A stretch of DNA of 64,000 bases from Paracoccaceae bacterium (GTDB taxonomy: Bacteria > Pseudomonadota > Alphaproteobacteria > Rhizobiales > Stappiaceae), in NCBI GenBank assembly GCA_002709505.1, contig PARB01000045.1, positions 21,502 to 85,501 of the forward strand, given 5' to 3'. Shown here piece after piece: positions 2,138-29,630 of the stretch. Numbering within the stretch: the first letter of the stretch is position 1; every line of letters begins with the position of its first letter. The notes under the pieces were generated by a model. The model did not search any database. It saw only the letters and a program-made list of their open reading frames with translations, and was not told the origin of the DNA. Position numbers and translations under genes: made by a program.

Positions 2138-2153
2138 TCCCCCATTTGAGGGA
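2138..2153 (+). promoter_or_regulatory. Palindromic operator, copy 1 (TCCCCCATTTGAGGGA)
   Basis: 67 bp upstream of ATG 2221; near-identical to sites at 10965, 13143 and 14331. Confidence 0.7.
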
Positions 2154-2220
2154 CGGCAGCCGGTTTACGACGGTGTAACTCTGAAACACCGAAGCATGAC
2201 ACGGATGGAGAACACGCCAC

Positions 2221-3555
2221 ATGATCCGGCAGTTTGCAGGAAGGGCTACCGGTCTGGTGCGCTCGTGGGCGGCGGCGGCGGCGCTTGTCGCGATGTCGAC
2301 GGTGGGGGCCACAGGCCAGATTCAGTTGCCGGAAGGCACGGTCGCCAGAAGCGTGATCCTTTCACTCTACACAATCAATTCCATGATGGAGCAGCAAGGC
2401 GCCGGACTTGAGGGTGGCACACATGTGATGACCTCCTTTCGCGCATTCCTCGCTCCCGAACTCATCAAGGAGATCGCAGCCAGCGACGGTGGCTTTCGTC
2501 CATTGGTCGGCGCGTATGAAGGCACCGTGGACGACTATGAACTGCGGATGTCAGCGGATCAGCCGGACGACAGCAGCATCGTTTTCGAGGCCGCAGTGGA
2601 ATCCAAAGGCACCGTCCGATTGGTTTCCTTCGCCCTCACGCAATCGGGTAGCCGCCCGTTGATAACGCGGATATGGGGAGATGGCTGGTCTTTCGGCAAA
2701 GGAAGCGCCGAGGCCGCGCTGCGGGCGCCTGCCGCATCCGCGCAGCCACCGGGCAAGCAAGAACAAGCGGCCGTTGCGGCAGCGGATGAAAGCGATGTCG
2801 CGGCCGGCAATGTCCCCGCCGGCACGGCAACACCTTCCCTGCCATTTCAGGACTCATTCGATGGCGCGGCTTTGGGCCCCCAATGGACTGTGATCGGCGA
2901 AGCCCCCGACAAATTCGTGGTCGAGGACGGGGTCATCTATCAGATTGCGACAGGCGGCGACGACGACTTCCGCAACGAGGGCAGCGAAAACATCTTCCAG
3001 CTGGGGGGAGCTCCGGAAGGCGATTTCGATATGACCTTGACCGGGAAACTCGAAGCCAAGACGGGCAGAGAAGGCGTGTGGCTGGGGCTCTATGAGGCTT
3101 CAACCAGCTTCCTTGCAGCCAATCTCTACGTCTACACCAATGGCTGCGGTCCCTATCTCGGCCTCTGGATCGTCAACCGGCAGCCCGTCGCCAATCTGGA
3201 CAAGCCGCTGACCAGCGAGTTCGACGACAATCTCTTCGACAAGGGCCCCGTTTTGTCCAGCACCTGCAATGCCGGCAACCGGGAAATTGCCGATACCATC
3301 TTGCAACGCCTCAACGAAACCGGCTTCTCGCTGACCCTGTCACGCCGCGGATTTCGCTATTTCGCGACAGCCGAACTCGATCTTCCAGCCTTCGGCGACA
3401 ATCCTGGCGGTCCGGTCACTGCAGTGACCAACAAGGTGGCCCGGACAACGGCAGCCGGCAATCCCGCCTTCATGCTGGGGCAATTCCGGCGCGCTGGAAA
3501 AGGTGAGTCAGTCGCGCAGTTCGACAGCTTTTCAATATCGGCACCGGTGAACTGA
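2221..3555 (+). CDS. Secreted protein: DUF3828-like N-domain plus concanavalin-like beta-sandwich C-domain
   Basis: Signal-like N-terminus. C-domain FQDSFDG..LGPQW...PEGDFD...GCGPYL...GESVAQFDSF aligns with the C-domain of 3573-5600. Confidence 0.7.
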   Translation: MIRQFAGRATGLVRSWAAAAALVAMSTVGATGQIQLPEGTVARSVILSLYTINSMMEQQGAGLEGGTHVMTSFRAFLAPELIKEIAASDGGFRPLVGAYEGTVDDYELRMSADQPDDSSIVFEAAVESKGTVRLVSFALTQSGSRPLITRIWGDGWSFGKGSAEAALRAPAASAQPPGKQEQAAVAAADESDVAAGNVPAGTATPSLPFQDSFDGAALGPQWTVIGEAPDKFVVEDGVIYQIATGGDDDFRNEGSENIFQLGGAPEGDFDMTLTGKLEAKTGREGVWLGLYEASTSFLAANLYVYTNGCGPYLGLWIVNRQPVANLDKPLTSEFDDNLFDKGPVLSSTCNAGNREIADTILQRLNETGFSLTLSRRGFRYFATAELDLPAFGDNPGGPVTAVTNKVARTTAAGNPAFMLGQFRRAGKGESVAQFDSFSISAPVN

Positions 3556-3572
3556 CGGCAGCCAACCGCACA

Positions 3573-5600
3573 ATGGGAACTCGGCCTATGTTTCGAACTC
3601 TGAGGATTGCATCTTGCGGCCTGTCCATGTCTCTGCTCGCGGCGTTCGGGGCGAGCGCTCAGGCACAGGACATCAATTCGGCTATCGCGCTTGTCGAGCA
3701 GTTTATCGATGCGCACAGGACCAGTCTCGACACCAGGAACGGCCCGTTGCTCAACAATGCGCAGGCGGCCGCGCCCTATGTGGTCGACGGATTGGCGGTA
3801 GACGGGTTGCAGGGACAACTCGGGTTCGACCCGGTCTACAACGCGCAGGATTATGAAATCTCGAACATCCGGGTCTTCGCCGACACCGAGACACCCTTCC
3901 TGCGCGGGGCGGCGCAGATACGCGTGACGCTTGAGAATTTCGGGCAGCGCCAGGAATTCGTCTACACGCTCGTGCCGGTATCACCCGACAATGTCTGGCA
4001 GATTTCCGATATCTACTCGGTCTCGAGCAACTGGTCGCTTGCCGACATGGCATACGATCTCGGGATCGACCTGAGTGGCGGAACGGGACCTGAAACAACC
4101 CTGGAAAATGCAGGTCCACCGATCCCCTGCGCAGTCGCATGCGGGACTCCCGTTCAGTCCCAGGCTCAGGATAGTCGCGCCCCGATCGCTTCGTCGGGCA
4201 CCGAAGCCAATACCGTATCCGAGCCGGTCATCGTTCCCGGGATGGAACAGGGCGACCTGCCCGGCAATGGCATCAATCCCGAGGGACGCAACCTCTTGAT
4301 CATTTTCGACGCCTCGGGATCGATGTGGGGGCAGATCGACGGCGTAGCCAAGATCACCACGGCCCGGCAGGCGCTTTCGGGAATCGTCGGGGATCTCGAT
4401 CCGGCGATGAATGTGGGGCTCCTGGCCTATGGGCATCGGCGGAAGGTAGATTGTACCGATACCGAACTCCTGTACCCGGTCGCCAACTATGATGCGGGAC
4501 GACTGCTACCGGCAATAGAGGGAATTTCTCCGCTCGGGAAAACGCCAATTGCCGGCGCACTGGAACAGGCGGCGGCCGCGATGCCCAAATCCGGGCAATC
4601 CTCGAGCGTGCTCTTGATATCGGACGGGCTGGAAACCTGCGGCGGCGATCCGTGTGCCGCAGCAGCCCGGCTGGCCGAGAGCAGGATCAAGACTCGCGTT
4701 CACGTCGTCGGCTTCGATCTGAGCGAGGAAGAGCATGCTGCGCTCCAGTGTATCGCAGACAACGGAAATGGCACCTATTATCCGGCAAACAACGCCCAGA
4801 GCTTTGTTGCCGCCGTCAACGACGTGGTCCGACAGGTCGAAGAAACAGCGCCAACCGCGCCGGAAGCTACCTCAGAACCTGCGTCAGAACCTGCAACGGC
4901 AATCGTTTTCGAGGAGACCTTTGACGGCCCGACGCTTGATGCCGCATGGCGGATAGACAATCCCGTCGAGGAACTCACCGCGTTTACACCCGAGGGCGCG
5001 ATGTTCGTGGCCGCGATTGGCAAGGCGCCCTACTTCAAAAATTCGGATGCAACAAATCGTTTCGTCCTGGAGCGCCCGCTCCCCGAGGGGGACTTCGATC
5101 TGGTTGTCGACGTCAGGATGAATGTGCAGACCAGGCATGAGGGGGTCATGTTGTCGCTGTTCAACGCCGCCCACCAGCAAATCGGCGCCCACATGTGGCT
5201 CGAGCCTCTAGGCTGCGGCAACTATCTCAACCTGTCGCTGGTCAGATTGTCCGGCAGCGAGGATGACCCGCAGACGACCTCATTTGACACCAGTCTGTTC
5301 AGCGGGCCATGGGCGGACGAGGTCTGCTACGATGGGCGCGCGCGGGCCGATGCGATTCTGGAGGCCCTGGCCCGGGACGGCGCCAAACTGCGTCTGAAGC
5401 GGCGTGACCGGGAAATCACGGCATCCCTGGAGCTGCAGATGCCGGGAAACGGAGAAACGCTCTCCTACACGACCGAACCGATCACGATGCTCCGCCTGTC
5501 GGGCGCCCCTAGCCTGCTTGCAGGGCACTGGCACAAGGCGCAGCCCGGCGAGAGCCATTTCGAGTTCGACCGCTTCGCCATAGAGGTTCCCCGGCAATGA
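3573..5600 (+). CDS. Secreted DUF3828-like + VWA + beta-sandwich protein
   Basis: Signal peptide (ASAQA); FDPVYNAQD motif; VWA MIDAS DASGSM, GKTPIA, LISDGLETCGGDPC, VHVVGF. Confidence 0.85.
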   Translation: MGTRPMFRTLRIASCGLSMSLLAAFGASAQAQDINSAIALVEQFIDAHRTSLDTRNGPLLNNAQAAAPYVVDGLAVDGLQGQLGFDPVYNAQDYEISNIRVFADTETPFLRGAAQIRVTLENFGQRQEFVYTLVPVSPDNVWQISDIYSVSSNWSLADMAYDLGIDLSGGTGPETTLENAGPPIPCAVACGTPVQSQAQDSRAPIASSGTEANTVSEPVIVPGMEQGDLPGNGINPEGRNLLIIFDASGSMWGQIDGVAKITTARQALSGIVGDLDPAMNVGLLAYGHRRKVDCTDTELLYPVANYDAGRLLPAIEGISPLGKTPIAGALEQAAAAMPKSGQSSSVLLISDGLETCGGDPCAAAARLAESRIKTRVHVVGFDLSEEEHAALQCIADNGNGTYYPANNAQSFVAAVNDVVRQVEETAPTAPEATSEPASEPATAIVFEETFDGPTLDAAWRIDNPVEELTAFTPEGAMFVAAIGKAPYFKNSDATNRFVLERPLPEGDFDLVVDVRMNVQTRHEGVMLSLFNAAHQQIGAHMWLEPLGCGNYLNLSLVRLSGSEDDPQTTSFDTSLFSGPWADEVCYDGRARADAILEALARDGAKLRLKRRDREITASLELQMPGNGETLSYTTEPITMLRLSGAPSLLAGHWHKAQPGESHFEFDRFAIEVPRQ

Positions 5601-6904
5601 TGCAGCGTCGCGCACTCGCTCCCGTTCTGCTGGCAACGGCCCTTGCCGCCATTCCGGCACTCCCGGTCTCGGCGCAGAGCGACATGGGCACTGCGGAGGG
5701 CGGCGAAAGCCTGTTCGATTGGCTGGAGACGCGGCAGGACAAAAAGAGCGATGGCTCCGGAATGAGCTTCGACGAGACGTCGGTTGCCGAGCATGACGCA
5801 CTGGCCTGCGCGGCCGGCATGGGCTGCGAGGGACTGGGCGTGAACCAGGACGACGCGCTGGTCCTGACCGGACACGATACCGCCGACACCGCGCGCGAGG
5901 CCTACCGCGAACAATATGGGGAGCCGCTTTCGGATCAAGGCTCGCCGAGCGATGGCGACGCCGCCAGCAACAATGAAATGAGCTTCGACGACACGTCCGT
6001 TGCCGAGCATGACGCGCTGGCCTGTGCGGCCGGCATGGGCTGCGAGGGACTGGGCGTGAACCAGGACGATGCGCTTGTCCTGACCGGACACGACACCGCC
6101 GACACCGCGCGCGAGGCCTACCGTGAACAGTACGGGGAGCCGCTTTCGGATCGGGACCCGCCGATCGATGGCGACGGCGCCGATCAGACCGGGGCCGGAA
6201 ACGAGGCAGAGCAGGACGGAAGCCTGTTCGACCGCGTGGAAACCGGACAGAAAGACGGCTCCAGCGGCAATGAAATGAGCTTCGACGATACGTCCGTTGC
6301 CGAGCATGACGCGCTGGCCTGCGCGGCGGGCATGGGCTGCGAGGGACTGGGCGTGAACCAGGACGACGCGCTGGTCCTGACCGGACACGACACCGCCGAC
6401 ACCGCGCGCGAGGCGTTCCGCGAAAAATATGGGGACCAGGAGTCAAGTACCGCCGAGGAGGCTACAGAACCGGACCTCTCCGTCGACACGAAAGACGGCG
6501 ACATGTCGTTCACTGAGGATGACGTCACCGACGACGGTGCCGACATGTCTTTCTCCGAGGACGAGGTGGTGCAGGACGGCTCGAATATGTCCTTCACCGA
6601 AGAGGAAGCGCTGGACAACCAAGACGGCGCGTTGCCCGAAAACAGGTTCACCGATGCAGACATCACCTCTTTCAGTCAGGAAGAACGCGCACTATGGGCA
6701 TGTGCTGCCGCTTTCGGCTGCAAGGGTGCTGCCGCAGGACTGACGCCTCACCAGGCTCTGCATCGGCTGGAATTGCCCGACTTTTCCTACGAATGGCCAC
6801 TTGCAGCCTGCGCGACCAACGCCCCGGGCGCCTGCGAGGAAATCGGCATCAGCTTGATGGATGCAATGCGGATCATGTCGCATCTGGCCAATCCCAACCG
6901 GTGA
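5597..6904 (+). CDS. Secreted acidic protein with three ~55-aa Cys-containing repeats
   Basis: Signal peptide ending PVSA; ATGA overlap with the upstream gene; three copies of MSFD.TSVAEHDALACAAGMGCEGLGVNQDDALVLTGHDTADTAREA.RE.YG. Confidence 0.8.
   Translation: MMQRRALAPVLLATALAAIPALPVSAQSDMGTAEGGESLFDWLETRQDKKSDGSGMSFDETSVAEHDALACAAGMGCEGLGVNQDDALVLTGHDTADTAREAYREQYGEPLSDQGSPSDGDAASNNEMSFDDTSVAEHDALACAAGMGCEGLGVNQDDALVLTGHDTADTAREAYREQYGEPLSDRDPPIDGDGADQTGAGNEAEQDGSLFDRVETGQKDGSSGNEMSFDDTSVAEHDALACAAGMGCEGLGVNQDDALVLTGHDTADTAREAFREKYGDQESSTAEEATEPDLSVDTKDGDMSFTEDDVTDDGADMSFSEDEVVQDGSNMSFTEEEALDNQDGALPENRFTDADITSFSQEERALWACAAAFGCKGAAAGLTPHQALHRLELPDFSYEWPLAACATNAPGACEEIGISLMDAMRIMSHLANPNR
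5762..6434 (+). repeat. Three intragenic direct repeats of ~160-175 bp
   Basis: Units start at atgagcttcgac at 5762, 5978 and 6275; in frame, differing mostly at synonymous positions. Confidence 0.95.
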
Positions 6905-7154
6905 CCGCGTTCGTCAGGCAGCCCTTCGGATCGGATGTGGCGCGGATTGCCGGTCTTGCCGCAGCAGCGGACTGCGACTGCGACGTCGCCGCGCCGGCGC
7001 AGCGACCTGGCAGCTGGAGTATTCAGGGCCTGTGAGCGCGAGGTGATTTCAGATTGCACCTGGTCATTCTGTCCGTCTCCGGCATCGCGGTGGGGGCGGT
7101 CAACGGCCGTGGCGGCATAGCGCGCGGGAGCGTCAAGGCGCCTCGTCCAAGTGC

Positions 7155-8972
7155 TCACCCCAGCCAGCCAAGCGGCCCCGACAGGAGCCGTGAGGTCAGC
7201 TCCGATTGGCTATGGACATTCATTTTGGAGAACGCCTTCTTCAGATGGCCGCGCACGGTGCTGACCAGAATGCCCAGCGTTTCCGCTGCTTCCTCCGGAG
7301 ACTTGCCGCCGGCGATGAGAAGCGCGACTTCGGCCTCCTTGCCCGTCAGGCCGTATGCAAGCTCGATGAGCGCCATGCGCGAGTCCGCCTCGAGATCCCG
7401 GCCGAGACTGGTACGCAGCACCAGAACGGAGGCAGGCCCCTGCCGCTGCAGGCCCGTGTGCTTCAACGCCTCGGGATAGAACCGGAAGCCAACAGGTGTG
7501 CCGTCGTGAAGAATGATCGTGTCGCCTCGGCCTGCCTGGTTGGCGGGATCGGCAAGCTCTCCGGTCAACAACTCGCGCGTGAGAGAGCTGGCAATCCCCT
7601 GTTCGGAACTTGGCAGGACACTTTCCGGGAAAAGCCGGGTGAGCGCCTCGAAGTAGGTTTGGTTGGAATGAAGCAACGCGCCGTCGCTATCGAGAATGGC
7701 GACGCCGATCTGAAGCCTTTCGACAACCGACTGTAGCAGGACGCCCAGCGTGGCGTTCATCATCACCTGCCGGTTCAGGTTGAACGAACGCTCCCAGTGC
7801 GGCATCAGCGACAGGATGCGCTTGTGCAGCGCCGCCTCCGCCAGATCGCCCGCGCGTTCGGCTTCATAGATCATCCGGTAGATGATCTCGTTCCAGCGGC
7901 TTTCGTCATCGATGGCGTTGTAACACAGTTCAACAAGCTCTCCCGGGCTCAACTCCGTGGACGCCCCGAGGGTGCTGGTCTTGGCCAACAGTTCCGATGT
8001 GAGTTCCGCGACCCCGATCTCGTCCCCCTCGTCGACCGGATGCCACTCCTCGCCGACCCAGCGGACAATGCGCTCGGCTATGCCGAAGCGCTTCTCCTCG
8101 AGAAACAGCGCCGACCGCGCGCCTTCGATCCGGGCCGACGCGATGTCATCGAAACCGACGCGTTCGAGAAAACGTTCCACAGGCGGCAGAAACCCGCCGT
8201 CGCGCAGCATGGCATCCTCGCCGCCGAACAGGATCAGGCAGCGCGTCCCCGGCAGAACGGAGGCCCCCTTTGGCCACTTCCAGGCTGAAAGCATGCCCGA
8301 AAAGATGTTGTACCAGTATGCGGGAGTGGGGGTCGGCCACCCCAGAGGATCGGCAACCACGGACTCGATCAGGGCGCGATCCGTGCTCATCACGTCTGCG
8401 GGATGATGGCGCTCCTTGAGGTGCGAGCCCAGGAACGCATAAAGGTGATGCAAGGACTGCTCGTCGGGAGCGTCCGGAGAGCCAAGTATGCAGCGTGTTC
8501 GCGAGAAGGTCTTGCCGAACATGGCAAGGGCACGCTGGTTCGGCGGTGGCGATATCAGGACAATATGGCGTGCGAGATCCGGCCAGGTCTTGAGCACTTC
8601 GAGCGTTAGCAGCGCCGTGATGTTGGGAACGACGACCAGCCGGTGCTCCCACGGGATGCCGGCGAAGCTCCTTTCGAATAGGAGGCGCATGTCCGCGACA
8701 GCGCGTTGCCAGCCATCTTCGTAGTCGAGATGTCCGAGAGGGGTTTGGCTGCCGGTAGACTTGCCGTGTCCGCGGATATCGCCCGAATAGGCATTCCATC
8801 CCAATTGGCGAAAGCCCGCCCCCAGATCGTGAAGCATCCCGGAATGGGTGGGCTGGCTATGCCCCAGAAACACCGCCCTATGGCCCTGAGCCGGCCTGTT
8901 GCCCGGGTCTACCGCCCACTTGCGCAAGAACAGCGGCTGGTTGCTCTCGCCCACCAGGAATTCCGCATCCAT
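7155..8972 (-). CDS. Alpha/beta-hydrolase-like (lysophospholipase-family) domain fused to PAS-like and LuxR HTH domains
   Basis: N-terminal DIRGHGKS and GGED motifs; C-terminal YGLTGKEAEVALLIAGGKSPEEAAETLGILVSTVRGHLKKAFSKMNVHSQSEL LuxR HTH; central VERLQIGVAILDSDGALLHSN PAS-like segment. Confidence 0.88.
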   Translation of the reverse strand: MDAEFLVGESNQPLFLRKWAVDPGNRPAQGHRAVFLGHSQPTHSGMLHDLGAGFRQLGWNAYSGDIRGHGKSTGSQTPLGHLDYEDGWQRAVADMRLLFERSFAGIPWEHRLVVVPNITALLTLEVLKTWPDLARHIVLISPPPNQRALAMFGKTFSRTRCILGSPDAPDEQSLHHLYAFLGSHLKERHHPADVMSTDRALIESVVADPLGWPTPTPAYWYNIFSGMLSAWKWPKGASVLPGTRCLILFGGEDAMLRDGGFLPPVERFLERVGFDDIASARIEGARSALFLEEKRFGIAERIVRWVGEEWHPVDEGDEIGVAELTSELLAKTSTLGASTELSPGELVELCYNAIDDESRWNEIIYRMIYEAERAGDLAEAALHKRILSLMPHWERSFNLNRQVMMNATLGVLLQSVVERLQIGVAILDSDGALLHSNQTYFEALTRLFPESVLPSSEQGIASSLTRELLTGELADPANQAGRGDTIILHDGTPVGFRFYPEALKHTGLQRQGPASVLVLRTSLGRDLEADSRMALIELAYGLTGKEAEVALLIAGGKSPEEAAETLGILVSTVRGHLKKAFSKMNVHSQSELTSRLLSGPLGWLG

Positions 8973-9288
8973 AAGTCATCTCCCAAGCCAATCAGGCCTT
9001 CACAAAAACGCGTAGGACAACCTGGAAATTGCCTACCGGTGATTGTGTGAACCTGCCCTGAATGGACCTGACAGCTTTTATGGTGCACGGGCGCGACTAG
9101 GAAAAGCCCTGGCGGAGATGAAGCGGACTGCGGCAAGGCAATTGAACCGCTCTTTCGGTGTGTCGTGGAGGAAAATCCAGTTTTCGAAGCAGGTCAATGT
9201 CCCGGTTTCGGTTCGGAACCTTCGCAAGCAGCAGGATCTTCCAGCACATCGGGCAGCGCGGCGGTGAATGCTGCGCGATCCCGCTGGA

Positions 9289-10314
9289 TCATTCGACATA
9301 GCGTTTGATGGAAAGCTTTGCGGCTTCGAATTCCTCCAGCATGCCAGGCAGCAAGCGGTCGATACCGCCCTCCGAGGCATTCTCACCAACCAGTTTGTCC
9401 TGCGCCATAAAGAACAACACATCGTCTGCAACGATGAACCCGACCGTGTGAAAGCGCGTCAGGAGATCGAGCATGGTGGCCTGGGTGGCCGGCGTGAGGA
9501 TTTGCAGAATTTCGCGCGAGACGTCGGTTTCGCTTCCTGCCGACAGGCAGCGCCCGGAGATATGAAATCGCTCGTTGAACTGGATCGACTCGGTCTTGAT
9601 GTCGCGATCCAGGGGGCCCTTGTTCACGATGTTCTCGGGGCGGACGACGGCGCGGATACCCGTTTTCCGGTCGATCCGATAGGCTCCGAGCACTGAAAAA
9701 AACTGGCCGTATCCGCCCCTGCCACCGCGGGCGTCCCGCCGCATGCCACGCGTGCCGAGACCGGCTTCCATCTGCATGGCACCGACCGCGATCCACAAGG
9801 GCAGCCCGTCCTGCGCACTCTCGCCCCAGAATTCCCCATCGAGCCGCGCGCCCATGAAGGAGCCGGCCTGAACCTTCGTCAGTTCGGGAATATGCGCCTC
9901 GATCTTTCTCAGGCGCGGCGGCTTTACGCGTTGCGAGCGGCGCTCGTAATTTCCATCGGAGTCCCGCAACGGCATCCGTTCGATCTGCCATTCCAGGAAT
10001 TTTCCAGTGTAGGACCAGCCCTTGTCCTGCGCGATACGGACCCTGCGGTGGGTTCTGCGACCGTCGACGTTCTCCAGTGCATCCACCAGAAAGATCGCGC
10101 CGAAGGCAAAAGTGGTCACGGCAACCGGAACAAAGGGAAAGCTGCTGCCGACAAAACCCGCTGCCAACGTCCACATCAGAGCGAGCAGCGCGGCCGGCAG
10201 GGGGAGACGTTTCAGCCAGATCGGAAGCGCAATGCCCTTGCGGCTTCCGGAAATATCGGGCGTTTCGACGACGATCTCGCCGTCGAACGGATCCCAATGC
10301 CGGCGCGTGCTCAT
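9289..10314 (-). CDS. DUF3137-like membrane protein
   Basis: Two N-terminal TM helices; DIKTESIQFNERF...ILTP motif; ATGA-coupled to lemA. Confidence 0.6.
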   Translation of the reverse strand: MSTRRHWDPFDGEIVVETPDISGSRKGIALPIWLKRLPLPAALLALMWTLAAGFVGSSFPFVPVAVTTFAFGAIFLVDALENVDGRRTHRRVRIAQDKGWSYTGKFLEWQIERMPLRDSDGNYERRSQRVKPPRLRKIEAHIPELTKVQAGSFMGARLDGEFWGESAQDGLPLWIAVGAMQMEAGLGTRGMRRDARGGRGGYGQFFSVLGAYRIDRKTGIRAVVRPENIVNKGPLDRDIKTESIQFNERFHISGRCLSAGSETDVSREILQILTPATQATMLDLLTRFHTVGFIVADDVLFFMAQDKLVGENASEGGIDRLLPGMLEEFEAAKLSIKRYVE

Positions 10315-10886
10315 GGGCGGCTTCCCGGCAGATCTATCCGGGGCATTGTGCGTACCGCTTCGGCCTCCGCCGTGGCCAGGGCGAACGGTTTTGCATGCTC
10401 GAACCGCATGACGCGGGCGATCCAGTTGGACGGAATTGCATCGAGCTGGGTGTTGTAGCGCTCGACATTGGCGTTGTAGAGCCGCCTCGCCGCGCTGATC
10501 TGGTCTTCGGTTTCTTCCAACTGCTTTTGCAACGCGCGGACATTGCCCGTCGAACCGATCTCCGGCGTATCCTCGGAGTAGGCGACAAAGGCGCTTAGTG
10601 CGGCAGACAGTTCCGCCTCGGCCTCTTGAACGCTTGCGATGTCGCCGTTGCGCGCGCTCATGGCAGCCCGGCGTGCATCGAGAAGCCTGTCGAAGATCCG
10701 GTTTTCCTGCGCCATCGCGCCCCTGACGGAATCGACAAGGGCGGGGATGAGGTCGTGACGGCGCTTGAGCTGCACGTCGATCCCCGAATAGCCGGTCGTC
10801 ACCGCGTTCTTCGCCGCTGCCAGCCGGTTCTGCAGGTAGATGAATATGAGTATGCCCGCGGCAATGGTGAGGATAGTCGCGATCAT
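10311..10886 (-). CDS. lemA: LemA family protein
   Basis: N-terminal TM helix; IDVQLKRRHDLIP and ETEDQISAARRLYNANV..YN signatures. Confidence 0.93.
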   Translation of the reverse strand: MIATILTIAAGILIFIYLQNRLAAAKNAVTTGYSGIDVQLKRRHDLIPALVDSVRGAMAQENRIFDRLLDARRAAMSARNGDIASVQEAEAELSAALSAFVAYSEDTPEIGSTGNVRALQKQLEETEDQISAARRLYNANVERYNTQLDAIPSNWIARVMRFEHAKPFALATAEAEAVRTMPRIDLPGSRP

Positions 10887-10964
10887 GTCCGGTGCCGGTT
10901 GCCTCCTGAAACGCGGCGCGTCTTGCGCCGATTAATGACGTAACCGGGCACGGATATGACGGCG

Positions 10965-10980
10965 TCCCCCAAATGAGGGA
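10965..10980. promoter_or_regulatory. Palindromic operator, copy 2 (TCCCCCAAATGAGGGA)
   Basis: In the divergent lemA/symporter intergenic region; 14 of 16 positions identical to copy 1. Confidence 0.7.
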
Positions 10981-11070
10981 GGAGGCAAGGCCGTGGCAAG
11001 GATCGAGGCAAACAGGGGCTGCGCGAACAATAGCTGGCGATTGGGCGGCGACGAATGATACGTGTCACCG

Positions 11071-12405
11071 ATGCAATTGCCCGCTGACATTCTGGAACTC
11101 GGCCCCGTCGTCTTCGTGCTGCTCGCGCCACTTGTCTATGCGCTTGTGCGCGCGCGCAATGCGACACGTGCCGATTTCATTTTCAATTCGGGCCGCACCG
11201 GAACCCTCGCGACCGTTGCGGGGATCGTTTGCGGGAACATCGGCGCCGGCACCTTCGTCGCGCTCCTGCTCTTTTCGGATGCCAGCCCGATACTTGGCGT
11301 TTCGCTGGCCGCCGCATATGCGCTCGGTCTTGTTATATGCGCTGCGATCGCGCCAGCGGTTCACCGGCAGTCTCGCCGGTATGGCGTTCATGGGCTCGTC
11401 GACCTCATCGTGGCGGCCCATGGCGTGCGTCACCCATTGGCGATCTGGCTCCCGATCGCTTTCGTTTTTCTGCTGCGCACGGCGGTGCAACTTCTGGCGC
11501 TGGCGGCGATCCTGGCCGCGATCATGCCAGTCTCGAACCTGGCAGCGCTGGTTCTGGCGAGCGCGCTCACCGGGATCTACACCGCCATTGGCGGCTATCG
11601 CGTGGCGACGGAAACCGATATCTTTCAGGCCATTGTCATCCTCGCCGGGATTGGCGTGCTCACGGTCACGAATGCCGGCGGCATGCCGCACATCGAAAAC
11701 ATATTCGATCTCGGCCCCTATAAATTGCCGCTGCTTGTCGGCATCTGGTTGTTCATTCCCGTCAGCGCGGTCCTTGCCATCGACAATTGGCAACGAATGG
11801 CAACCGCCCGCGCGCCGGCAGTCGCGCGCAGGGGGTTCCTGCTCGCTGCTCCCCTTTGTCTGTTTTGCTACATGGGCATTGTCTGGCTGGGGCTCAAAGG
11901 CCATGCGGGCGAAGAGGTTCTCGCCGTATTGCGCGCGACCATGCCCGATCACTGGAGGTGGCTGGCCGATGTCATGCTGATTGCAGTGCTCATGTCGACC
12001 ATGGACACATTCGTCATGCCACTCGTCACCAGTCTGGAACGGACGCGCTATACATTGCGTCAGCTCCAGTTAATCGTTCTGACGCTGTTTGCCGTGCTTG
12101 CCATCGCCGCCTACACCATGGGGCCGCTGCTCAATTCGATCATTGCCGCATTCAGCTCGCTGGTGGTTTTCCTGCCTGCGGTCCTCGCCGCGCTGCTCTG
12201 GCGGCGGCTCAGCGCCGCCGCCGCAATCGTCTCGCTGAATCTCGGCGTGGCGGTCAGCCTGATCCTCGTCGGCGTCGATCTGAACTACGCCGCCTTCGGG
12301 GGCTTCGCGGCCGCATCGTTCACCTATGGCATTGCATGGATGCTTGCCTTGCGAAAAGACGCGCGGCCTCGTCGAAACGACGAGTTGCTGCGAAACGACC
12401 GATGA
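11071..12405 (+). CDS. Sodium:solute symporter (SSS) family permease
   Basis: Polytopic membrane protein; GNIGAGTF and GIYTAIGGYRVATETDIFQ motifs. Confidence 0.85.
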   Translation: MQLPADILELGPVVFVLLAPLVYALVRARNATRADFIFNSGRTGTLATVAGIVCGNIGAGTFVALLLFSDASPILGVSLAAAYALGLVICAAIAPAVHRQSRRYGVHGLVDLIVAAHGVRHPLAIWLPIAFVFLLRTAVQLLALAAILAAIMPVSNLAALVLASALTGIYTAIGGYRVATETDIFQAIVILAGIGVLTVTNAGGMPHIENIFDLGPYKLPLLVGIWLFIPVSAVLAIDNWQRMATARAPAVARRGFLLAAPLCLFCYMGIVWLGLKGHAGEEVLAVLRATMPDHWRWLADVMLIAVLMSTMDTFVMPLVTSLERTRYTLRQLQLIVLTLFAVLAIAAYTMGPLLNSIIAAFSSLVVFLPAVLAALLWRRLSAAAAIVSLNLGVAVSLILVGVDLNYAAFGGFAAASFTYGIAWMLALRKDARPRRNDELLRNDR

Positions 12406-12415
12406 CGCAAGCCGA

Positions 12416-12937
12416 TCACTCGGTCCCTTCGATTTCGGGAAGGTCCTGGCTCCGGTCCGTCTCGATCACGATCCCGGCGAACCCCTCGCCGTTGAGGTGA
12501 ATTTCCGGACAGGCCCTGGGCTCGTGCCTGGACTGATCGTACAGACACTCCTTGATCTCGTAGGCGATCTTCAAATCGGCACAAGGCGTTTGCGTGTTGA
12601 TCCCGGTGGTGCTGCGAAATTCCGACATGCCCTCATCGTTCCAGCCCCTGAAGACCCATTGCAGCGGCAAACCGGTCGACGTGTCATCGCGCGTATCGAT
12701 ATAGCGCTCTTCACCATAGAGGGCGTAGAAGCCCTGTGCCTGCTTGTTCACGGTGACGAAGGTTTCGGGTCTGCAGACGCCATTCTCGGTTTCCTCCGCC
12801 CGCACCACCACCTCCAATTCTCCCGGAGGGACGGTACTGGCAGGCTCCCGCTCGCTGAGAGCGACAGCAACGATGCCTGCGGCGAGCACCAGGCCGCCAA
12901 CAAATGAGGATGCGATCAGATACTTTCGAACCGGCAT
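12416..12937 (-). CDS. Exported or membrane-anchored hypothetical protein with 4 Cys
   Basis: Hydrophobic N-terminal segment; AGGAGA RBS upstream. Confidence 0.7.
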   Translation of the reverse strand: MPVRKYLIASSFVGGLVLAAGIVAVALSEREPASTVPPGELEVVVRAEETENGVCRPETFVTVNKQAQGFYALYGEERYIDTRDDTSTGLPLQWVFRGWNDEGMSEFRSTTGINTQTPCADLKIAYEIKECLYDQSRHEPRACPEIHLNGEGFAGIVIETDRSQDLPEIEGTE

Positions 12938-13142
12938 TGCCTTCTCCTAGCAAGCTGTTGCGGGACGGCAGCGGCCTTTGCTCGGCCCGTGACCGCGCGC
13001 ATTCGGCACGAGAAGAACGAAGCCGGAAAGTCCGACCGTTGCAGCCGGCGTCAATTGATTGAAACGTCTGCGCGTGAGCAATGCATATCTCCTGACAGGT
13101 GGGGGTCGGAAGCATTGCTGCATCGGAAGGCCGGCGGTCTCC

Positions 13143-13158
13143 CCTCCCAAATGGGAGA
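13143..13158 (-). promoter_or_regulatory. Palindromic operator, copy 3 (CCTCCCAAATGGGAGA)
   Basis: About 205 bp upstream of the 12937 start; same CCCA-WW-TGGG core. Confidence 0.6.
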
Positions 13159-13233
13159 GAAAGATCTCTTTTTTGAAGGCAGACGCTTTGGTGCTTCATC
13201 AGGTCGCCTAACCTGCCGCAGCCGGTGCCGTGC

Positions 13234-14163
13234 TCAGGTACCGCGCGCGTCGGCGAGGCCGAGACCGTCAATGATGTCGGTCACCAGCTCGAGCTCGGCC
13301 AACAGGTTGTAGGCACGTTCCTTCCCATCGCGAACTTCACGAAAAACGTTTCCGATCTCGAAACGCCGGGCCGCCGAGCCGAGACGTATGGTGATCAGCA
13401 ACCGATTGCCCACGAACGACATCGACACGCCCCGCCGGTTGTTGAGATGTTCGGTAAGTTCCACGATCCGTTCCATGAAGCGCGGAGTAAACAGCTGCCC
13501 CGCTTCAATCGGATTCGTGGAAAAGACCTCGAACCGATCTTCGAACCGGGAATCCTGCAGCCGGACGCGCTCGCCGTTCTGGCGAAATCGTTCCAGCGCG
13601 TTCCCGATCCAGTCGGTATCGGCAACGACAACTGTTTCGCCGTCGAAAGGCTTGTTGAAGCTGTAAGCCAGCATCAAGGCACGCCACTTGCTCTCCCTTT
13701 TCGAAAACCGGCCCTCGCACAGCTCGAAATCCACACCGCCGACACGCCCGTTGATGCGGTCTTCAAGCTTCGCGCTCTGATAAAACGGCAAGAGCGGCTC
13801 GAAGCGATCCAGAGGAAAGTCGAATTTTCCGAGCGCATATTCAAAGCCGAGATACGCGCAGACGCCCCCGTTCAGAACCTGCTTGTAGCGTTTGGCGAAC
13901 CCCAGATAGGCCAACCCCGCGCCCAACAAACCACAGAAGCCGACAGCAAAGGCAGCCAGCGCGATCGGACCATCGGATCGGCCCATCTGCGCCAGGAGCG
14001 CAACAGCGCCGAAGCCGGCTACGCCGAGTGCTCCAAGCCCCGCCACGAGCCACATCCGCGTCTTGCGTTGTGCTTCGAGACCGACGAGCGCCGGTTCGAT
14101 CTCGCGCGCGTAATAGCTGTCGAAATCCTGTTCGCGGGCATTGATCCCGCCGGGTGCAGTCAT
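13234..14163 (-). CDS. DUF3137 family membrane protein
   Basis: Two TM helices; EDRINGRVGGVDFELCE and RVRLQDSRFEDRFEVFSTNPIEAGQLFTPRFMERI motifs; GGGAGAGG RBS before ATG 14163. Confidence 0.8.
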   Translation of the reverse strand: MTAPGGINAREQDFDSYYAREIEPALVGLEAQRKTRMWLVAGLGALGVAGFGAVALLAQMGRSDGPIALAAFAVGFCGLLGAGLAYLGFAKRYKQVLNGGVCAYLGFEYALGKFDFPLDRFEPLLPFYQSAKLEDRINGRVGGVDFELCEGRFSKRESKWRALMLAYSFNKPFDGETVVVADTDWIGNALERFRQNGERVRLQDSRFEDRFEVFSTNPIEAGQLFTPRFMERIVELTEHLNNRRGVSMSFVGNRLLITIRLGSAARRFEIGNVFREVRDGKERAYNLLAELELVTDIIDGLGLADARGT

Positions 14164-14330
14164 GGCGCCTCTCCCGCGCGGCAAATCGGAGGAGAATGCG
14201 ACATTGCGCAATATGCGCTGGCGTCGACCGGACTGGCAGCTGGGAACCAGATCATGAAAACTCCCGGTCCTTCGAAAGGACAGTTGAACTCACTTCTGGT
14301 CAAGCTTGGTCCAGCCATGAGCCACACGCC

Positions 14331-14347
14331 TCTCCCATATTGGGGGG
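14331..14347 (-). promoter_or_regulatory. Palindromic operator, copy 4 (TCTCCCA-TAT-TGGGGGG, 3-bp spacer variant)
   Basis: About 167 bp upstream of ATG 14163; same half-sites with one extra central base. Confidence 0.45.
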
Positions 14348-14429: not shown

Positions 14430-14552
14430 CCACCAAGTTACCGTCCGACGATGTTTTTCGATGCCCTTTTTTGTCTATGTAAATCAGACATTTATCTGAA
14501 TTCTATGTCCACATAGGTCTTGATGTGCCTACATGTTTCCTCCATATTTTAG

Positions 14553-14569
14553 GGGTAGAAAATGGGTAG
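14553..14569 (+). promoter_or_regulatory. Putative integrase arm-type sites GGGTAG-N5-GGGTAG
   Basis: Same motif and spacing at 30450-30466 inside the other end of the element. Confidence 0.75.
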
Positions 14570-14578
14570 GGATGGGTC

Positions 14579-15874
14579 ATGGCGAGTGGCATTCATCGGC
14601 TTTCAGATCGGCAGATCAAGGCATACAAGCAACGCGGGCGGCTATCGGACGGCGGCGGGCTTTACCTGCAAGTCAGCAAGTGGGGCACGAAGTCATGGGA
14701 ATTCCGGTTCACGCTTCACGGCAAGACCCGCACCATGGGGCTAGGCCAGTACGAACTTGTGCCGCTCAAGAAGGCAAGGGAAGAGGCCGAAGCGCTTCGT
14801 CAAATTGTGCGCGAAGGCAACGACCCTATAGAGGCACGCAATGCTGCGAAGCTGAAAGCGCAGCTAGAGGCCGCAACGTCCATTCTGTTCAAAGACGCCG
14901 TTGAAAAGTGCATCGCGCGAAAGGAAGGCGAATTCCGCAGCGATAGGCACCGTAAGAACTGGCGTCGCAGCATGGATGCGTATGCGGTGCCGGTCATTGG
15001 TGACATGAACGTTGCGAATGTCACGACGCAAGACATTCTGCGAGTGCTGAACCAGCCGGTTGACGATGGCACCCTGCGGGAAAACAGAACCGAAACCGCG
15101 TCGCGCCTTCGTGGCCGCATTGAAAACGTCCTGTCGTGGGCCACGGTCGCGGGCTTCCGTACCGGCGACAATCCGGCGCGATGGATGGGCAACCTAAAGG
15201 AACTTCTGCCGACGCCTTCCAAGGTGGCGAAGGTCACGAAGCAACCGGCACTTTCGCAAGCGGACCTCCCCAAGTGGTTTGCCGACCTACGCAAGCGCGA
15301 CGGCATCGCCGCGCGGGCGTTGGAATTCTTGACGTTGTGCGCGTCGCGTTCGGGCGAAATACGCGGCGCGACATGGCAGGAAATCGACCTAGACGCCCGC
15401 ATGTGGAAGATACCGGGCGCGCGGATGAAAATGGAACGCGACCACCGCGTGCCGCTGTCCGACGCCGCTGTTGCGGTGCTAGAGGCGCTTCCTCGCATTG
15501 AGGGGTCAGACTATGTGTTCCCTGCCGTCCGGGGTGGTTCCCTGTCCGATGCGGCCCTGTCAGCCGTCATGCGCCGGATGCACGCTGCCGAAGAGAAGGC
15601 GGGCCGGAAAGGGTGGCTAGACCCGGACAGCGGGCTTCCTGCCGTGCCCCACGGCTTGCGCTCGACCTTTCGCGTATGGACGGCAGAACGGGGCTACGAC
15701 CACCACATGTCGGAAATGGCCCTTGCCCACAACGTAGGCTCGACAGTCGAACGGGCGTATCAGCGTAGCGACATGGTAGAACGCCGTCGCGCCATGATGG
15801 CGGATTGGGCGGCGTATTGTCGTGGCGAGGCAACCGCCGATAACATCGTGCATCTTCGCGCGGAGGCTGTTTAA
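14579..15874 (+). CDS. int: P4-family tyrosine integrase
   Basis: Arm-binding domain (DGGGLYLQV...MGLGQY); catalytic R (RSGEIRG), K (MKM), HGLR, LAH and Y (AYQRS) all present. Confidence 0.96.
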   Translation: MASGIHRLSDRQIKAYKQRGRLSDGGGLYLQVSKWGTKSWEFRFTLHGKTRTMGLGQYELVPLKKAREEAEALRQIVREGNDPIEARNAAKLKAQLEAATSILFKDAVEKCIARKEGEFRSDRHRKNWRRSMDAYAVPVIGDMNVANVTTQDILRVLNQPVDDGTLRENRTETASRLRGRIENVLSWATVAGFRTGDNPARWMGNLKELLPTPSKVAKVTKQPALSQADLPKWFADLRKRDGIAARALEFLTLCASRSGEIRGATWQEIDLDARMWKIPGARMKMERDHRVPLSDAAVAVLEALPRIEGSDYVFPAVRGGSLSDAALSAVMRRMHAAEEKAGRKGWLDPDSGLPAVPHGLRSTFRVWTAERGYDHHMSEMALAHNVGSTVERAYQRSDMVERRRAMMADWAAYCRGEATADNIVHLRAEAV

Positions 15875-16302
15875 TGGAGAAAAATACGAAGTTGCCCTAT
15901 GGCTACGACGCAAATGCGCAGTACCCATATAATTGCCCCCAAAACGAAGTAGAAGCATGGGAACGGCTAGCCGAAATTCAGTTATCGCTTGATAAAGGCG
16001 AAGCTATCCCATCCGAACTGGCAAGTTGGCTTGGTAATGCAATTGCGTATTCAGGCCAAAACCCCGACGAACTATTGCGGCGTTTGGGCTTGAAGCGCGG
16101 ACGCGGCGCGACGAAGCGCAACCCGAATGCATGGCGCGTATACGGTCGCCGTGTGTGCGAACTTGAAGACGAAGGAATGAAGGCCGAAGAAGCCCTTGCG
16201 CAAGTCTTATCCGAGACAGACGACATGTTCAGCCGGTCGCAGCTTCAAAACCTTCGTGACGAATACCGCGCAACGCGCGATGCTGCACTGAACCCCGAAT
16301 AA
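15874..16302 (+). CDS. Hypothetical protein, possibly DNA-binding
   Basis: TAATG overlap with int; basic LGLKRGRG motif followed by helices. Confidence 0.65.
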   Translation: MEKNTKLPYGYDANAQYPYNCPQNEVEAWERLAEIQLSLDKGEAIPSELASWLGNAIAYSGQNPDELLRRLGLKRGRGATKRNPNAWRVYGRRVCELEDEGMKAEEALAQVLSETDDMFSRSQLQNLRDEYRATRDAALNPE

Positions 16303-16895
16303 TGCCAACGATGAACGATGACGAAGTGAACCGCTCGATTATTGACCGGGACAATCTGCCCGCGAATTTTCCTACCCACAGGCATTCGCCGGAATTTTGG
16401 GAACAGCTTGGCCGCACCGTGGCGACCTTCGGATTTCTGGAAGAAGTCTTAGGCAAAGCAATCTTCGCGTTCACGGCAACGCGGAATTATTCCGCCGAAG
16501 AAATCGACGCGGCCTATCGGGAATGGCTACCGCAGCTTGAACGCGCGTTGACCGATCAGCTTTGGAACTTGGCCGAATGCTACGGAAAGGCCGCACGCGA
16601 CAATCCTGCGACAACGACGACGAACATAGACGAATTGGTTGAAGACATTAAGAAAGCGACCGTCATTCGCAATGTGCTTTGCCATGGGTCGTGGCGAACG
16701 CCGGATGCAAACGGCGCGTCCGTGCCGCTATTCATCAACCGGCAAAAGCAAAAATTCGATACGGCAATAGACCTCGCGTATTTGAAGCAAGTGCAAGCGT
16801 ACGTAGCGGAACTGGCGTGCAGCGTCGTAGACACCGTAACGCACATGGGTTGGCAGTTTCCCGGCGGGGCGGGCTCGGGAAAACCGATCATTTAG
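16302..16895 (+). CDS. HEPN-like protein
   Basis: TAATG overlap; LGRTVATFGFLE helix and RNVLCH (R-x4-H) motif. Confidence 0.6.
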   Translation: MPTMNDDEVNRSIIDRDNLPANFPTHRHSPEFWEQLGRTVATFGFLEEVLGKAIFAFTATRNYSAEEIDAAYREWLPQLERALTDQLWNLAECYGKAARDNPATTTTNIDELVEDIKKATVIRNVLCHGSWRTPDANGASVPLFINRQKQKFDTAIDLAYLKQVQAYVAELACSVVDTVTHMGWQFPGGAGSGKPII

Positions 16896-16998
16896 CAAGG
16901 TTCAACGCGTCTGCCACCAATTCCCCCGGTTCGGTGGCAGCTTGCGTAAGGGAACCTTGGCAAACCTTGGACTTATCAGTGACCAAGGAGCCAACCCA

Positions 16999-17274
16999 AT
17001 GAACACCCAAGCCAACACCCCCGCGCCGCCCGCCGCCTGCACCCTCATGCGTCCCGCCGACGTGTCCCGGATTACCGGCATGAAACGCAGCACGCTTTAC
17101 AACCATATCGACAAGGGCACGTTCCCCCGCCCCGTAAAGTTGGGCGAGCGTTTCGCCGTGTGGCCGTCCGACGAAGTGCAGGCAATCTTGAACGCCCGCA
17201 TTGCCGGAAAGGGTGACGACGAAATCCGCGTGCTTGTCGGCGAACTCATGGAAGCGCGAAAGCATCGCGCGTAG
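16999..17274 (+). CDS. alpA: AlpA family regulator/excisionase
   Basis: AAGGAG RBS; LMRPADVSRITGMKRSTLYNHIDKGTFPRPVKLGERFAVWPSDEV. Confidence 0.93.
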   Translation: MNTQANTPAPPAACTLMRPADVSRITGMKRSTLYNHIDKGTFPRPVKLGERFAVWPSDEVQAILNARIAGKGDDEIRVLVGELMEARKHRA

Positions 17275-17398
17275 CCGTACGGTAGAGAATGTCTCTACCG
17301 CGCTGTTCATTCAACTCACTTGAATTCCATCAAAAATATCTGGGATCGTGCAAATCAGAGCACTCTACCCACGTACTACCCACAGGCGCGCTGCGAAA

Positions 17399-18886: not shown

Positions 18887-18935
18887 GGTTTCAAAGGGTC
18901 GATAATCGCCTAAGTGCATGGAATTGCGAAGATAT

Positions 18936-19096
18936 AATGTTCTAATGTTTCTAACGCCAGAAACATCAAACCAGCCCAAATGCCAACCGGGCAATACACG
19001 CAATACCCTTAGACCATTAGAAAATTTATGTATTTGACATTATTTTCAATCGCTTATGGCGTCTAATGCCGCCGACGAAGGACTTAGAGGCTAAGA
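18936..19096. other. Putative replication origin with TCTAA/TTAGA iterons
   Basis: TCTAA at 18941, 18950 and 19062; TTAGA at 19009, 19017 and 19084; AT-rich tract at ~19020-19050; immediately downstream of the rep gene. Confidence 0.55.
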
Positions 19097-19127
19097 ACCG
19101 CCGCAACGTAGAGAAAGGGGCGTAACT

Positions 19128-19547
19128 TTGACGACGCGGAAACCAAAAGCGCCTTCACCCGCTGATGATACAGCGGAAAACAGCGCTGTGGGCAAGCCGT
19201 TCAAAAAGGGTCAGAGCGGCAACCCGGCAGGCAGACCGAAAGGCGCGCGCAGCAAGCTATCCGAAGCATTCCTTTCGAGCTTGGCGGATGATTTCGATGT
19301 GTATGGGTTGGATGCCATTGAGGCGTTGCGACGTACCGACCCAAAATCCTACCTGCAAATCATTGCTGCCGTTACGGCCAAGGTTCCACTGGCAGAAGTC
19401 ACCGTGACCAACAACACGCTCGTAGACCAGCGCCGCGTCATGGTGGTTAAAGATCACGGCACGGATGCCGAGTGGGAGGCCAAGCTGCGGACACAACAGC
19501 GCGCGCTTACCGAAGCCGCTACGGTCAGCGAACCCGAGAAAAAGTGA
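19128..19547 (+). CDS. DUF5681 / terminase small subunit-like protein
   Basis: PFKKGQSGNPAGRPKGARSKLSEAFL motif. Confidence 0.75.
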   Translation: MTTRKPKAPSPADDTAENSAVGKPFKKGQSGNPAGRPKGARSKLSEAFLSSLADDFDVYGLDAIEALRRTDPKSYLQIIAAVTAKVPLAEVTVTNNTLVDQRRVMVVKDHGTDAEWEAKLRTQQRALTEAATVSEPEKK

Positions 19548-19830
19548 AACCCCGCGCACGTTCCCGCCGCATTATCTCAGAGCGTACCCGCGCCCACCGT
19601 CCCTGCTCAAAAATGTCGCTGTCGTACCACGCGCGATGCTCTTCCATGCAGACGATATCAAACGCCCGCTCGCCGTGCTGGGCGTAGACCTCTTCGACCT
19701 TCGCGGCGATTTCGCGACGCGGGATGAGGCGGGGGCGAACGGAACCCTGCCAGACCGACCAGAGTAGCGTTCCCCAAATCGGCGACAAACAAACCACCCA
19801 AATTATGGCGGATACCCATGTTTCCGACAT
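19525..19830 (-). CDS. Small membrane protein
   Basis: N-terminal TM helix (WVSAIIWVVCLSPIWGTLLWSVW); divergent from the XRE gene. Confidence 0.55.
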   Translation of the reverse strand: MSETWVSAIIWVVCLSPIWGTLLWSVWQGSVRPRLIPRREIAAKVEEVYAQHGERAFDIVCMEEHRAWYDSDIFEQGRWARVRSEIMRRERARGFTFSRVR

Positions 19831-19908
19831 ATCCCGCACCACACGAACGTTGACTACAATATGTTCTTATATCACTACATATCGTACGTGGCCAGAAGTG
19901 TGTCTATG

Positions 19909-19925
19909 GGGAACAGAATGTTCCC
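19909..19925. promoter_or_regulatory. Inverted repeat GGGAACA-gaa-TGTTCCC abutting the XRE start codon
   Basis: Perfect 7-bp arms ending 1 nt before ATG 19926. Confidence 0.6.
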
Positions 19926-29627: not shown

Positions 29628-29630
29628 GCA

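Follow-up and report, generated by a model that had tools for sequence, protein, structure and literature searches.

A palindrome shared by the promoters of a tRNA-associated gene cluster and its candidate regulator, a pseudo-lipase fused to a LuxR-type DNA-binding domain

We analysed a 64,000-nucleotide stretch (hereafter the window) of the draft genome of a member of the Stappiaceae deposited as Paracoccaceae bacterium (GenBank assembly GCA_002709505.1, contig PARB01000045.1, positions 21,502 to 85,501). At 2.1–14.4 kb, the window contains a gene cluster whose promoters share one palindrome and which encodes a protein, R, that joins a hydrolase-like domain to a GerE-type (LuxR-family) helix–turn–helix (HTH). 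We propose that this region is a self-contained, horizontally mobile regulon, in which a dimer of R would bind TCYCYCA-WW-TGRGRGA through its HTH and, probably as an activator, control four target units: the A-B-C operon for exported proteins; the LemA–D341 operon, probably extending into R, together with the divergent symporter gene; the gene for the small protein E173; and gene F, which encodes a DUF3137 protein. The activity of R would be set by its amino-terminal pseudo-lipase domain, acting as a ligand-binding sensor. We give this explanation as a whole a probability of about 0.72, and the regulon itself is supported as far as sequence comparison reaches.

Results

A palindrome confined to the cluster

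The motif is a 16-bp inverted repeat of two heptamers separated by 2 bp (7-2-7). Site 1 (2138–2153, TCCCCCA-TT-TGAGGGA, 26.6 bits) is the predicted operator of the A-B-C operon, and site 2 (10965–10980, TCCCCCA-AA-TGAGGGA, 27.9 bits), the best match in the genome, lies between the divergent LemA and symporter genes. Site 3 (13143–13158, core CTCCCA-AA-TGGGAG, 25.0 bits) and site 4 (14331–14346, TCTCCCA-TA-TTGGGGG, 21.6 bits) are found upstream of E173 and F, respectively. All four palindromes lie where a preliminary description, made from the window alone, had placed them, but its 7-3-7 spacing for site 4 did not hold: the register is 7-2-7, with one variant half-site, because the site aligns in this way with the orthologous sites of four other loci (L001–L004). 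Those sites, in front of the DUF3137 gene, read CTCTCCAA-TT-TGGGAGAG in the sense of the gene and score 23–25 bits. In a close strain, sampled by sequencing runs X13, X15 and X16, the G-run of site 4 is one letter shorter at window position 14342 (TTGGGGGGG), and the weakest of the four sites therefore varies between strains.

The source genome (4.11 Mb, 65.4% G+C) was scanned with a symmetrised 22-nucleotide weight matrix built from 23 sites in the loci of eight other species (L001–L008), the window being left out to avoid circularity. The four highest-ranking matches in the whole genome were exactly sites 2, 1, 3 and 4, in that order. The strict core, CCCCCAWWTGAGGG, occurs twice in the genome, both times in this cluster. 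In the complete genomes of four relatives, all strict matches fell inside the cluster, and the reversed-pattern control gave none. The motif is therefore not common in any of these five genomes, and the earlier observation, made by eye, that no copy lies outside the island was borne out. A companion observation, that no copy precedes the regulator gene, is correct for this genome but not for relatives, four of which carry one there (L015, L020, L023 and L118).

The next matrix matches, at 19.7 bits (C88:7275–7296) and 18.5 bits (C6:1859–1880), which are the only others in the genome to exceed 18 bits, were considered as further members of the regulon and set aside, as nothing ties either to the cluster. 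The former lies inside an AAA-ATPase open reading frame (ORF); the latter is located 107 bp past ribBA, in front of an uncharacterised ORF of 236 residues.

Conservation at orthologous promoters

Seventeen loci encode homologues of R that are between 87% and 48% identical to it; they come from Nitratireductor, Pelagibacterium, Hoeflea, Stappia, Maritalea, Mesorhizobium, two Rhizobiaceae metagenome-assembled genomes, Pseudooceanicola and Roseovarius. The last two genera belong to the Rhodobacterales, and the set thus spans two orders. The same genes recur in all 17 loci, with A-B(-C) convergent with LemA–D341–R, in addition to variable extras. The palindrome is kept at the promoters of these loci. 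It stands upstream of A in every one, scoring at least 19 bits in 15 and taking a diverged form (11.3 bits) in the two Maritalea loci, and it also precedes LemA, a position that it shares with the divergent symporter or DUF3137 gene. An orthologue of site 3 (23.9 bits) is found upstream of E173 in L004, and in 10 of the 17 loci the palindrome also precedes a further small, exported Cys-containing protein encoded immediately downstream of R.

Alignment of the promoters isolates the motif from its surroundings. Site 1 is the sole conserved block in the aligned upstream regions of nine loci, and site 2 is the sole conserved block in the corresponding intergenic alignment. When the Nitratireductor and Hoeflea groups are compared, the motif is the only block kept between them.

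The palindrome travels with the regulator

R was detected in 6 of 401 sampled genomes of the order (5 of 149 genera) and is therefore a patchy accessory gene. All six R-positive genomes have matrix matches beside R, and among the sampled genomes a locus with more than one match was seen only together with R. Across 22 R-bearing loci, 62 sites score at least 16 bits. The association extends to regulators only 37–47% identical to R, in which the palindrome occupies intergenic regions of rearranged clusters with drifted flanks. Four such distant regulators (41–47% identity), from Aquibium, Pseudahrensia, Jannaschia and Pelagibacterium montanilacus, are accompanied by similar kinds of genes in shuffled order. 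Beside these four regulators the flank of the palindrome has drifted to GTCACYCA-WW-TGRGTGAC, and the palindrome is also found in the regulator's own promoter. In Fulvimarina (L025; R 41% identical), the region upstream of A offers no more than a degenerate 12.7-bit site.

As a negative control, 80 loci (1.17 Mb) around relatives of the VWA protein B were scanned. Matches above 14 bits appeared only in a locus that also encodes a close R, and the maximum in the R-free part (1.12 Mb) was 13.6 bits. The set holds 12 loci with a homologue of both the VWA and the carboxy-terminal domain but without R. Apart from the targets themselves, no gene but R is constantly found with the motif. We regard the motif as very probably the DNA site at which the regulator encoded in the cluster docks. 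Apparent covariation between half-site and recognition helix (TCYCYCA with STVRGHLKK; GTCACYCA with NTVRTHLKR) was not counted, because CTCACCCA half-sites also occur in the close clade and the drift is mainly in the outer flank.

Similar palindromes were also encountered in genomes without R. In at least three loci, L104 and L105 (one genus) and L114 (another family), a 7-2-7 look-alike of 25–26 bits, located in each case at 5998–6019, adjoins a gene for a LysE-type exporter. In L104 and L114 it also lies beside a gene for a GerE-HTH protein (614 residues in L104) that is unrelated to R outside the HTH. The look-alike is probably the operator of another LuxR-family regulator, and C-rich 7-2-7 palindromes of this kind therefore appear to serve other members of that family. 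In L109, two palindromes of 21.8 bits (5874–5895) and 29.2 bits (5998–6019) stand 124 bp apart, between two ORFs without a family.

A predicted pseudo-hydrolase sensor fused to a DNA-binding domain

R (7155–8972, − strand) consists of a pseudo-monoglyceride-lipase domain (residues 1–310), a long helix (358–417), a PAS-like domain (423–519) and a GerE HTH (529–597). Hydrolase_4 (PF12146) matches residues 32–292 with 50.5 bits (cut-off 27) and GerE (PF00196) matches residues 542–594 with 36.6 bits (cut-off 23.5); sequence matches in the Protein Data Bank are VraR, DesR and LuxR-family HTH domains. The HTH helices at 529–597 are also present in an AlphaFold2 (AF2) model built on 30 homologues, which has a predicted local distance difference test (pLDDT) score of 86 and a predicted template modelling (pTM) score of 0.78. 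Profile searches detected no DNA-binding domain in the products of the other ORFs of 1.2–14.4 kb, in agreement with the earlier proposal that the hydrolase–LuxR fusion is the only transcription factor of the island.

The amino-terminal domain, an alpha/beta-hydrolase fold with a cap, best matches monoglyceride lipases, with Foldseek TM scores of 0.74–0.79 and a profile E value of 2.6e-07; the residue-level correspondence given here rests on motif spacing and the model rather than on a printed structural alignment. At the nucleophile elbow (strand 111–116, helix 117–129) R reads V-P-N-I-T, which puts Asn117 in the place of the serine, and all 30 homologues compared, the most distant at 37% identity, keep this asparagine. 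Where the catalytic histidine would be expected, the homologues have S, T, A, G or Q (Ser287 in R itself), and Asp253 is the sole triad residue kept. H38, D65, R67, H69, D253 and R286 are likewise invariant in the 30 homologues. The invariance of Asn117 and of these polar residues therefore points to the conserved pocket of a pseudoenzyme rather than to a decaying enzyme, and the domain is most likely a catalytically dead, ligand-binding sensor. Given its monoglyceride-lipase ancestry, a lipid-like ligand is a reasonable first guess.

Beyond this domain, R forms a coiled helix of 60 residues, of which the segment 402–417 is the most conserved of the whole protein. Two copies of residues 330–605 are predicted to pair, with an ipSAE of 0.63 against 0.01 for the best control, a contact agreement between runs of at least 60% and a partner pLDDT of at least 69. 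Of 30 solved homodimers, 20 reached the same mark, as did 1 of 23 monomers; these counts are rough because an alignment of our own was used. The predicted interface comprises the 402–417 helix, the PAS-like domain and the last HTH helix, residues 588–604 included, and the prediction supports pairing of R as a dimer.

The family of R comprises at least 76 sequence clusters, none of which is functionally named; the labels in use are 'alpha/beta hydrolase' and 'serine aminopeptidase domain-containing'. A literature search found no paper on the family or its cluster. Two observations concern individual members. In Pelagibacterium montanilacus (L023), two paralogous genes for Hydrolase_4–GerE proteins are convergent (10001–11911, + strand; 11988–13670, − strand). 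A regulator labelled as from the gammaproteobacterium Ferrimonas balearica (P0027) is nearly identical, with few substitutions, to a Pseudooceanicola regulator (P0022) in the HTH and pocket segments, which reflects either a recent transfer or a mislabelled or contaminated assembly.

Transcripts and promoter geometry

Contigs of a marine metatranscriptome (X14) are 100% identical to the window over A-B-C, D341, LemA, E173 and F. Cover is low over R and the symporter gene and absent at 1200–2187 and 14538–15031, none of which can be read as silence. Three contig ends mark possible 5′ ends of transcripts. The first, at 2188 (+ strand), would place the centre of site 1 at −42.5 relative to the start of A-B-C, with a −10-like TAACTC at 2176–2181. 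For the LemA operon (contig 10458–10929, end at 10929, − strand) and for E173 (contig 12468–13107, end at 13107, − strand), the motif centre would fall at −43.5, and the latter promoter has a −10-like AGCAAT at 13119–13114. These coincidences give a weak hint that the contig ends mark transcript starts and that the motif takes the position used by class II activators. The three promoters have TA-containing −10-like elements at the right distance and no proper −35 hexamer. With a site centred ~42–44 bp upstream of the probable starts and no proper −35, R would therefore most likely act as a class II-type activator.

A scan for consensus sigma-70 promoters gave none at the four motif sites; the single promoter-like match (2196–2225) lies downstream of site 1. 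Terminator-like hairpins were at the chance level in the consensus scan (10, with 12.1 expected). RNA runs X13, X15 and X16 ('organism A') were rejected as expression data; their cover of the whole stretch is even and their contigs, up to 229 kb long, are DNA-like. They are therefore silent on expression and were used only for the close strain. As to R itself, the palindromes in front of its gene in relatives suggest that it is probably autoregulated there, and in the present genome it is possibly read through from the LemA promoter.

Cargo of the cluster

The A-B-C operon opens with A (A444; 2221–3555, + strand), an exported protein with a signal-peptide-like amino terminus and a carboxy-terminal ConA-like beta-sandwich, which matches no Pfam or NCBIfam family. 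B (3573–5600, + strand) is an exported VWA protein (VWA_2, 1.3e-10). A is a paralogue of both ends of B, sharing its amino- and carboxy-terminal domains, and residues 209–442 of A match residues 431–673 of B at ~32%. The AF2 model of B is moderate (pLDDT 63), with a beta-sandwich as the carboxy-terminal domain. The ConA-like label of the A and B domains derives from Atlas matches to GH43_C2/DUF1349 clusters, all below 0.9, which we treat as leads only. C (5597–6904, + strand) is an exported acidic protein with three Cys-containing repeats of ~70 residues, seen both in the translation and as direct repeats (D1) in the DNA, in which three copies of 205 nucleotides (window 5761–6478) are 81–92% identical. 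C is not a constant part of the operon; distant loci lack it or have only a weakly conserved version. One metatranscriptome contig skips 547 nucleotides in B/C, from 5331 to 5879; its short side is 21 letters, and it may be an assembly effect.

On the opposite strand, the LemA–D341(–R) unit begins with a LemA-family membrane protein (10311–10886, − strand; PF04011, 2.1e-42). The second gene, D341 (9289–10314, − strand), overlaps the stop of LemA and encodes a membrane protein distantly like DUF3137 (E value 0.045, below the cut-off). In 19 of the 22 R-bearing loci where both genes were mapped, D341 comes after LemA. Divergent from LemA is a sodium:solute symporter family permease (11062–12405, + strand; SSF, 1.4e-07), the true start of which is probably the ATG at 11071 and which shows a weak likeness to PanF and PutP, far under the model cut-offs. 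E173 (12416–12937, − strand) is a small exported or membrane-anchored Cys-containing protein without a family match in profile searches, and homologues are present in L001, L002, L004 and L006. F (13234–14211, − strand) is a DUF3137 membrane protein (PF11335, 1.3e-25), probably starting at the ATG at 14163. Neither R nor any of the cargo proteins fits an NCBIfam model. We infer that the cargo is a surface, matrix or adhesion programme combined with an uptake permease.

A tRNA-associated island

The cluster is a tRNA-Met-associated island of lower G+C content (0.60–0.63, versus 0.654 for the genome). An intact tRNA-Met gene lies at 30509–30585, and 30520–30554 within it forms a direct repeat (D8) with a degenerate copy (31 of 35 positions) at 1538–1572 (− strand), the probable left end of the island. 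Between the cluster and the tRNA-Met gene lies an integrase-bearing element (14430–30508, + strand; G+C content 0.51–0.59; integrase 14579–15874). In contigs of the close strain, tRNA-Met sequence directly follows F and site 4 at 14429, and the element is therefore a later, separate, strain-specific insertion that lies outside the regulon. In N. rhodophyticola (L002), too, the cluster abuts tRNA-Met.

Elsewhere the neighbour differs: the cluster adjoins tRNA-Thr in L009 (3863–3937) and tRNA-His in L014 (6947–7023), compared with tRNA-Met in L002 (4125–4201). Different tRNA neighbours across species fit repeated integration as an island. The closest R, at 87% identity, is from Pelagibacterium. 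Within the window's own genus, one sampled genome has a 47% paralogue clade, and two others gave no match to R with this query. A closer R in Pelagibacterium than in the own genus is the pattern expected for horizontal transfer.

Alternative explanations

The interpretation of R as the activator of this regulon has points against it, and several of them concern the promoters. The ends of contigs are an unreliable guide to where transcription begins, and those used here derive from a single study. In this genome R has no site of its own, and the near-zero metatranscriptome depth in the 316 bp between D341 and R gives no sign of read-through. The pseudo-hydrolase domain could serve protein interaction instead of ligand sensing. 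With respect to specificity, the strict 16-mer occurs as a single copy in ~5% of R-free related genomes, compared with ~1% for the reversed control, and a lone match is therefore not diagnostic; another GerE-family protein of similar specificity could, in principle, cross-bind the motif. As to the sign of regulation, a site that overlaps the −35 region would suit a repressor just as well. R might use the same sites as a repressor that occludes the −35 region and is released by its ligand, a reading we consider unlikely. If the contig ends are transcript starts, the site does cover the −35 region at three promoters, the metatranscriptome covers the targets while cover of R is low, and NarL also represses from 7-2-7 sites (PMC4549865). 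Yet no −35-like hexamer is found at the proper spacing from the −10-like elements, which is typical of activator-dependent promoters. A centre at approximately −42.5 is, moreover, where NarL is placed as a class II activator at yeaR (PMC4549865). Provided that R binds the motif, we put activation over repression at roughly three to one. The lux box of LuxR, centred at −42.5, lies at the same position.

A different possibility is that the protein binding the palindrome is encoded at another place in the genome, whether it is another GerE-family protein or an unrelated dimeric transcription factor, with R controlling something else. The single palindromes that L104, L105 and L114, from genomes lacking R, carry next to LysE exporters and other GerE-HTH proteins mean that the half-site type is not unique to R. 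We nevertheless regard this reading as highly improbable. The motif is missing from the rest of this genome and of the four relatives' genomes, and the reading would require a trans-acting factor that is conserved across two orders yet has its targets confined to an island present in 6 of 401 genomes. Where clusters are rearranged, the motif stays with R and occurs in R's own promoter, and loci with VWA homologues but without R also lack the motif. Least credible of all is a repeat without a dedicated regulator, acting as an RNA or DNA hairpin (attenuator or terminator) or left over as a mobile-element remnant or an integrase arm site, although an inverted repeat in a tRNA-associated island next to an integrase-bearing element invites the idea. 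In 60 distinct sites, the two variable half-site positions do not covary so as to maintain pairing, being symmetric about as often as independent half-sites would give (30 of 60 versus 30.8 expected) or slightly more often (31 of 60 versus 21), the 2-nucleotide centre is too short for a loop, and the transcript contigs start downstream of the motif. The asymmetric half-sites and the 2-nucleotide centre therefore point to a protein that acts as a dimer and accepts either C or T at two places in each heptamer, and not to a hairpin. An origin in a mobile element is contradicted by flanks without mutual similarity, by promoter motifs kept in genomes whose cluster is not next to an integrase and by the close strain, which keeps site 4 without the integrase element.

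Discussion

The predicted circuit gives a previously uncharacterized regulator family a concrete candidate operator, a defined target set and cultivable carriers, among them Nitratireductor aquibiodomus JCM 21793, N. rhodophyticola L1-7-SE and Pelagibacterium xiamenense HS1C4-1. Five protein families whose role is unknown (LemA, DUF3137, the ConA-like/VWA pair, the Cys-repeat protein and small exported proteins) would be linked in one programme, and their presumed co-regulation is the best available handle on their function. If the proposal is correct, R would be a clear example, in bacteria, of a one-component transcription factor whose input domain is an alpha/beta-hydrolase pseudoenzyme, and a regulator, operators and targets that move jointly between families and orders would constitute a natural portable, insulated regulatory circuit. 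A bolder version, which is tentative and on balance doubtful, is that R founds a bacterial class of hydrolase-fold receptors wired directly to DNA. Its dead monoglyceride-lipase domain might sense a lipid-like or other small cue, possibly imported by the symporter or related to the symporter's substrate, and the PAS-like dimer module might then switch on a portable surface or adhesion programme, exchanged among marine alphaproteobacteria as a plug-in island with its own operator code.

Among known systems, NarL resembles R in combining a GerE HTH with a C-rich 7-2-7 site, TACCCCT-AA-AGGGGTA as opposed to TCCCYCA-WW-TGRGGGA here. A dimer of the GerE-type output domain of NarL binds inverted heptamers 2 bp apart, and NarL activates from sites centred near −42.5/−44.5, with napF having one at −40 to −49 and yeaR one at −38 to −47 (PMC4549865). 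R differs in that its input is the pseudo-lipase and PAS-like module, in contrast to the phosphorylated receiver of the response regulator NarL, and in the sequence of the half-site; no Response_reg match was found in R and no partner kinase in the cluster. NarL dimerizes on DNA through its last HTH helix, and the predicted interface of R includes the same helix. The quorum-sensing regulators LuxR and TraR are, as predicted for R, one-component, ligand-controlled GerE-HTH dimers that act at palindromes of 16–20 bp; the sensor fold of R, by contrast, is an alpha/beta hydrolase. No match to the autoinducer-binding domain (PF03472) was found in R and no LuxI in the cluster, and the NCBIfam TraR and PA1136 models match only the HTH of R, far under their cut-offs. 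R likewise has no AAA or NB-ARC match of the LAL/MalT type, and the MalT model matches the HTH only, with 17 bits against a cut-off of 537.

For the sensor domain, the closest relatives in sequence and fold to R residues 1–310 are the monoglyceride lipases, such as human MGLL and Mycobacterium tuberculosis Rv0183, with which R shares the DxxGHGxS motif and the triad aspartate (D253). It departs from them in the replacement of the serine by Asn117 and of the histidine by Ser287, in an oxyanion HS for HG, and in the fusion to the PAS-like and HTH domains. R is not expected to be an enzyme because of these changes and this fusion. A hydrolase fold that perceives a small molecule and passes the signal on is known from the plant receptors D14/KAI2 and GID1 and from RsbQ of Bacillus subtilis. 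GID1, like R, is without a working triad, whereas D14, KAI2 and RsbQ keep theirs and every member of the R family has asparagine at the nucleophile position. These receptors act through protein partners (F-box proteins, DELLA and the RsbP phosphatase), whereas in R the hydrolase fold is fused to the DNA-binding domain itself. LuxR-family one-component regulators with palindromic operators are thus a known theme, and what is new here is the combination of a pseudo-hydrolase sensor with a portable, insulated regulon.

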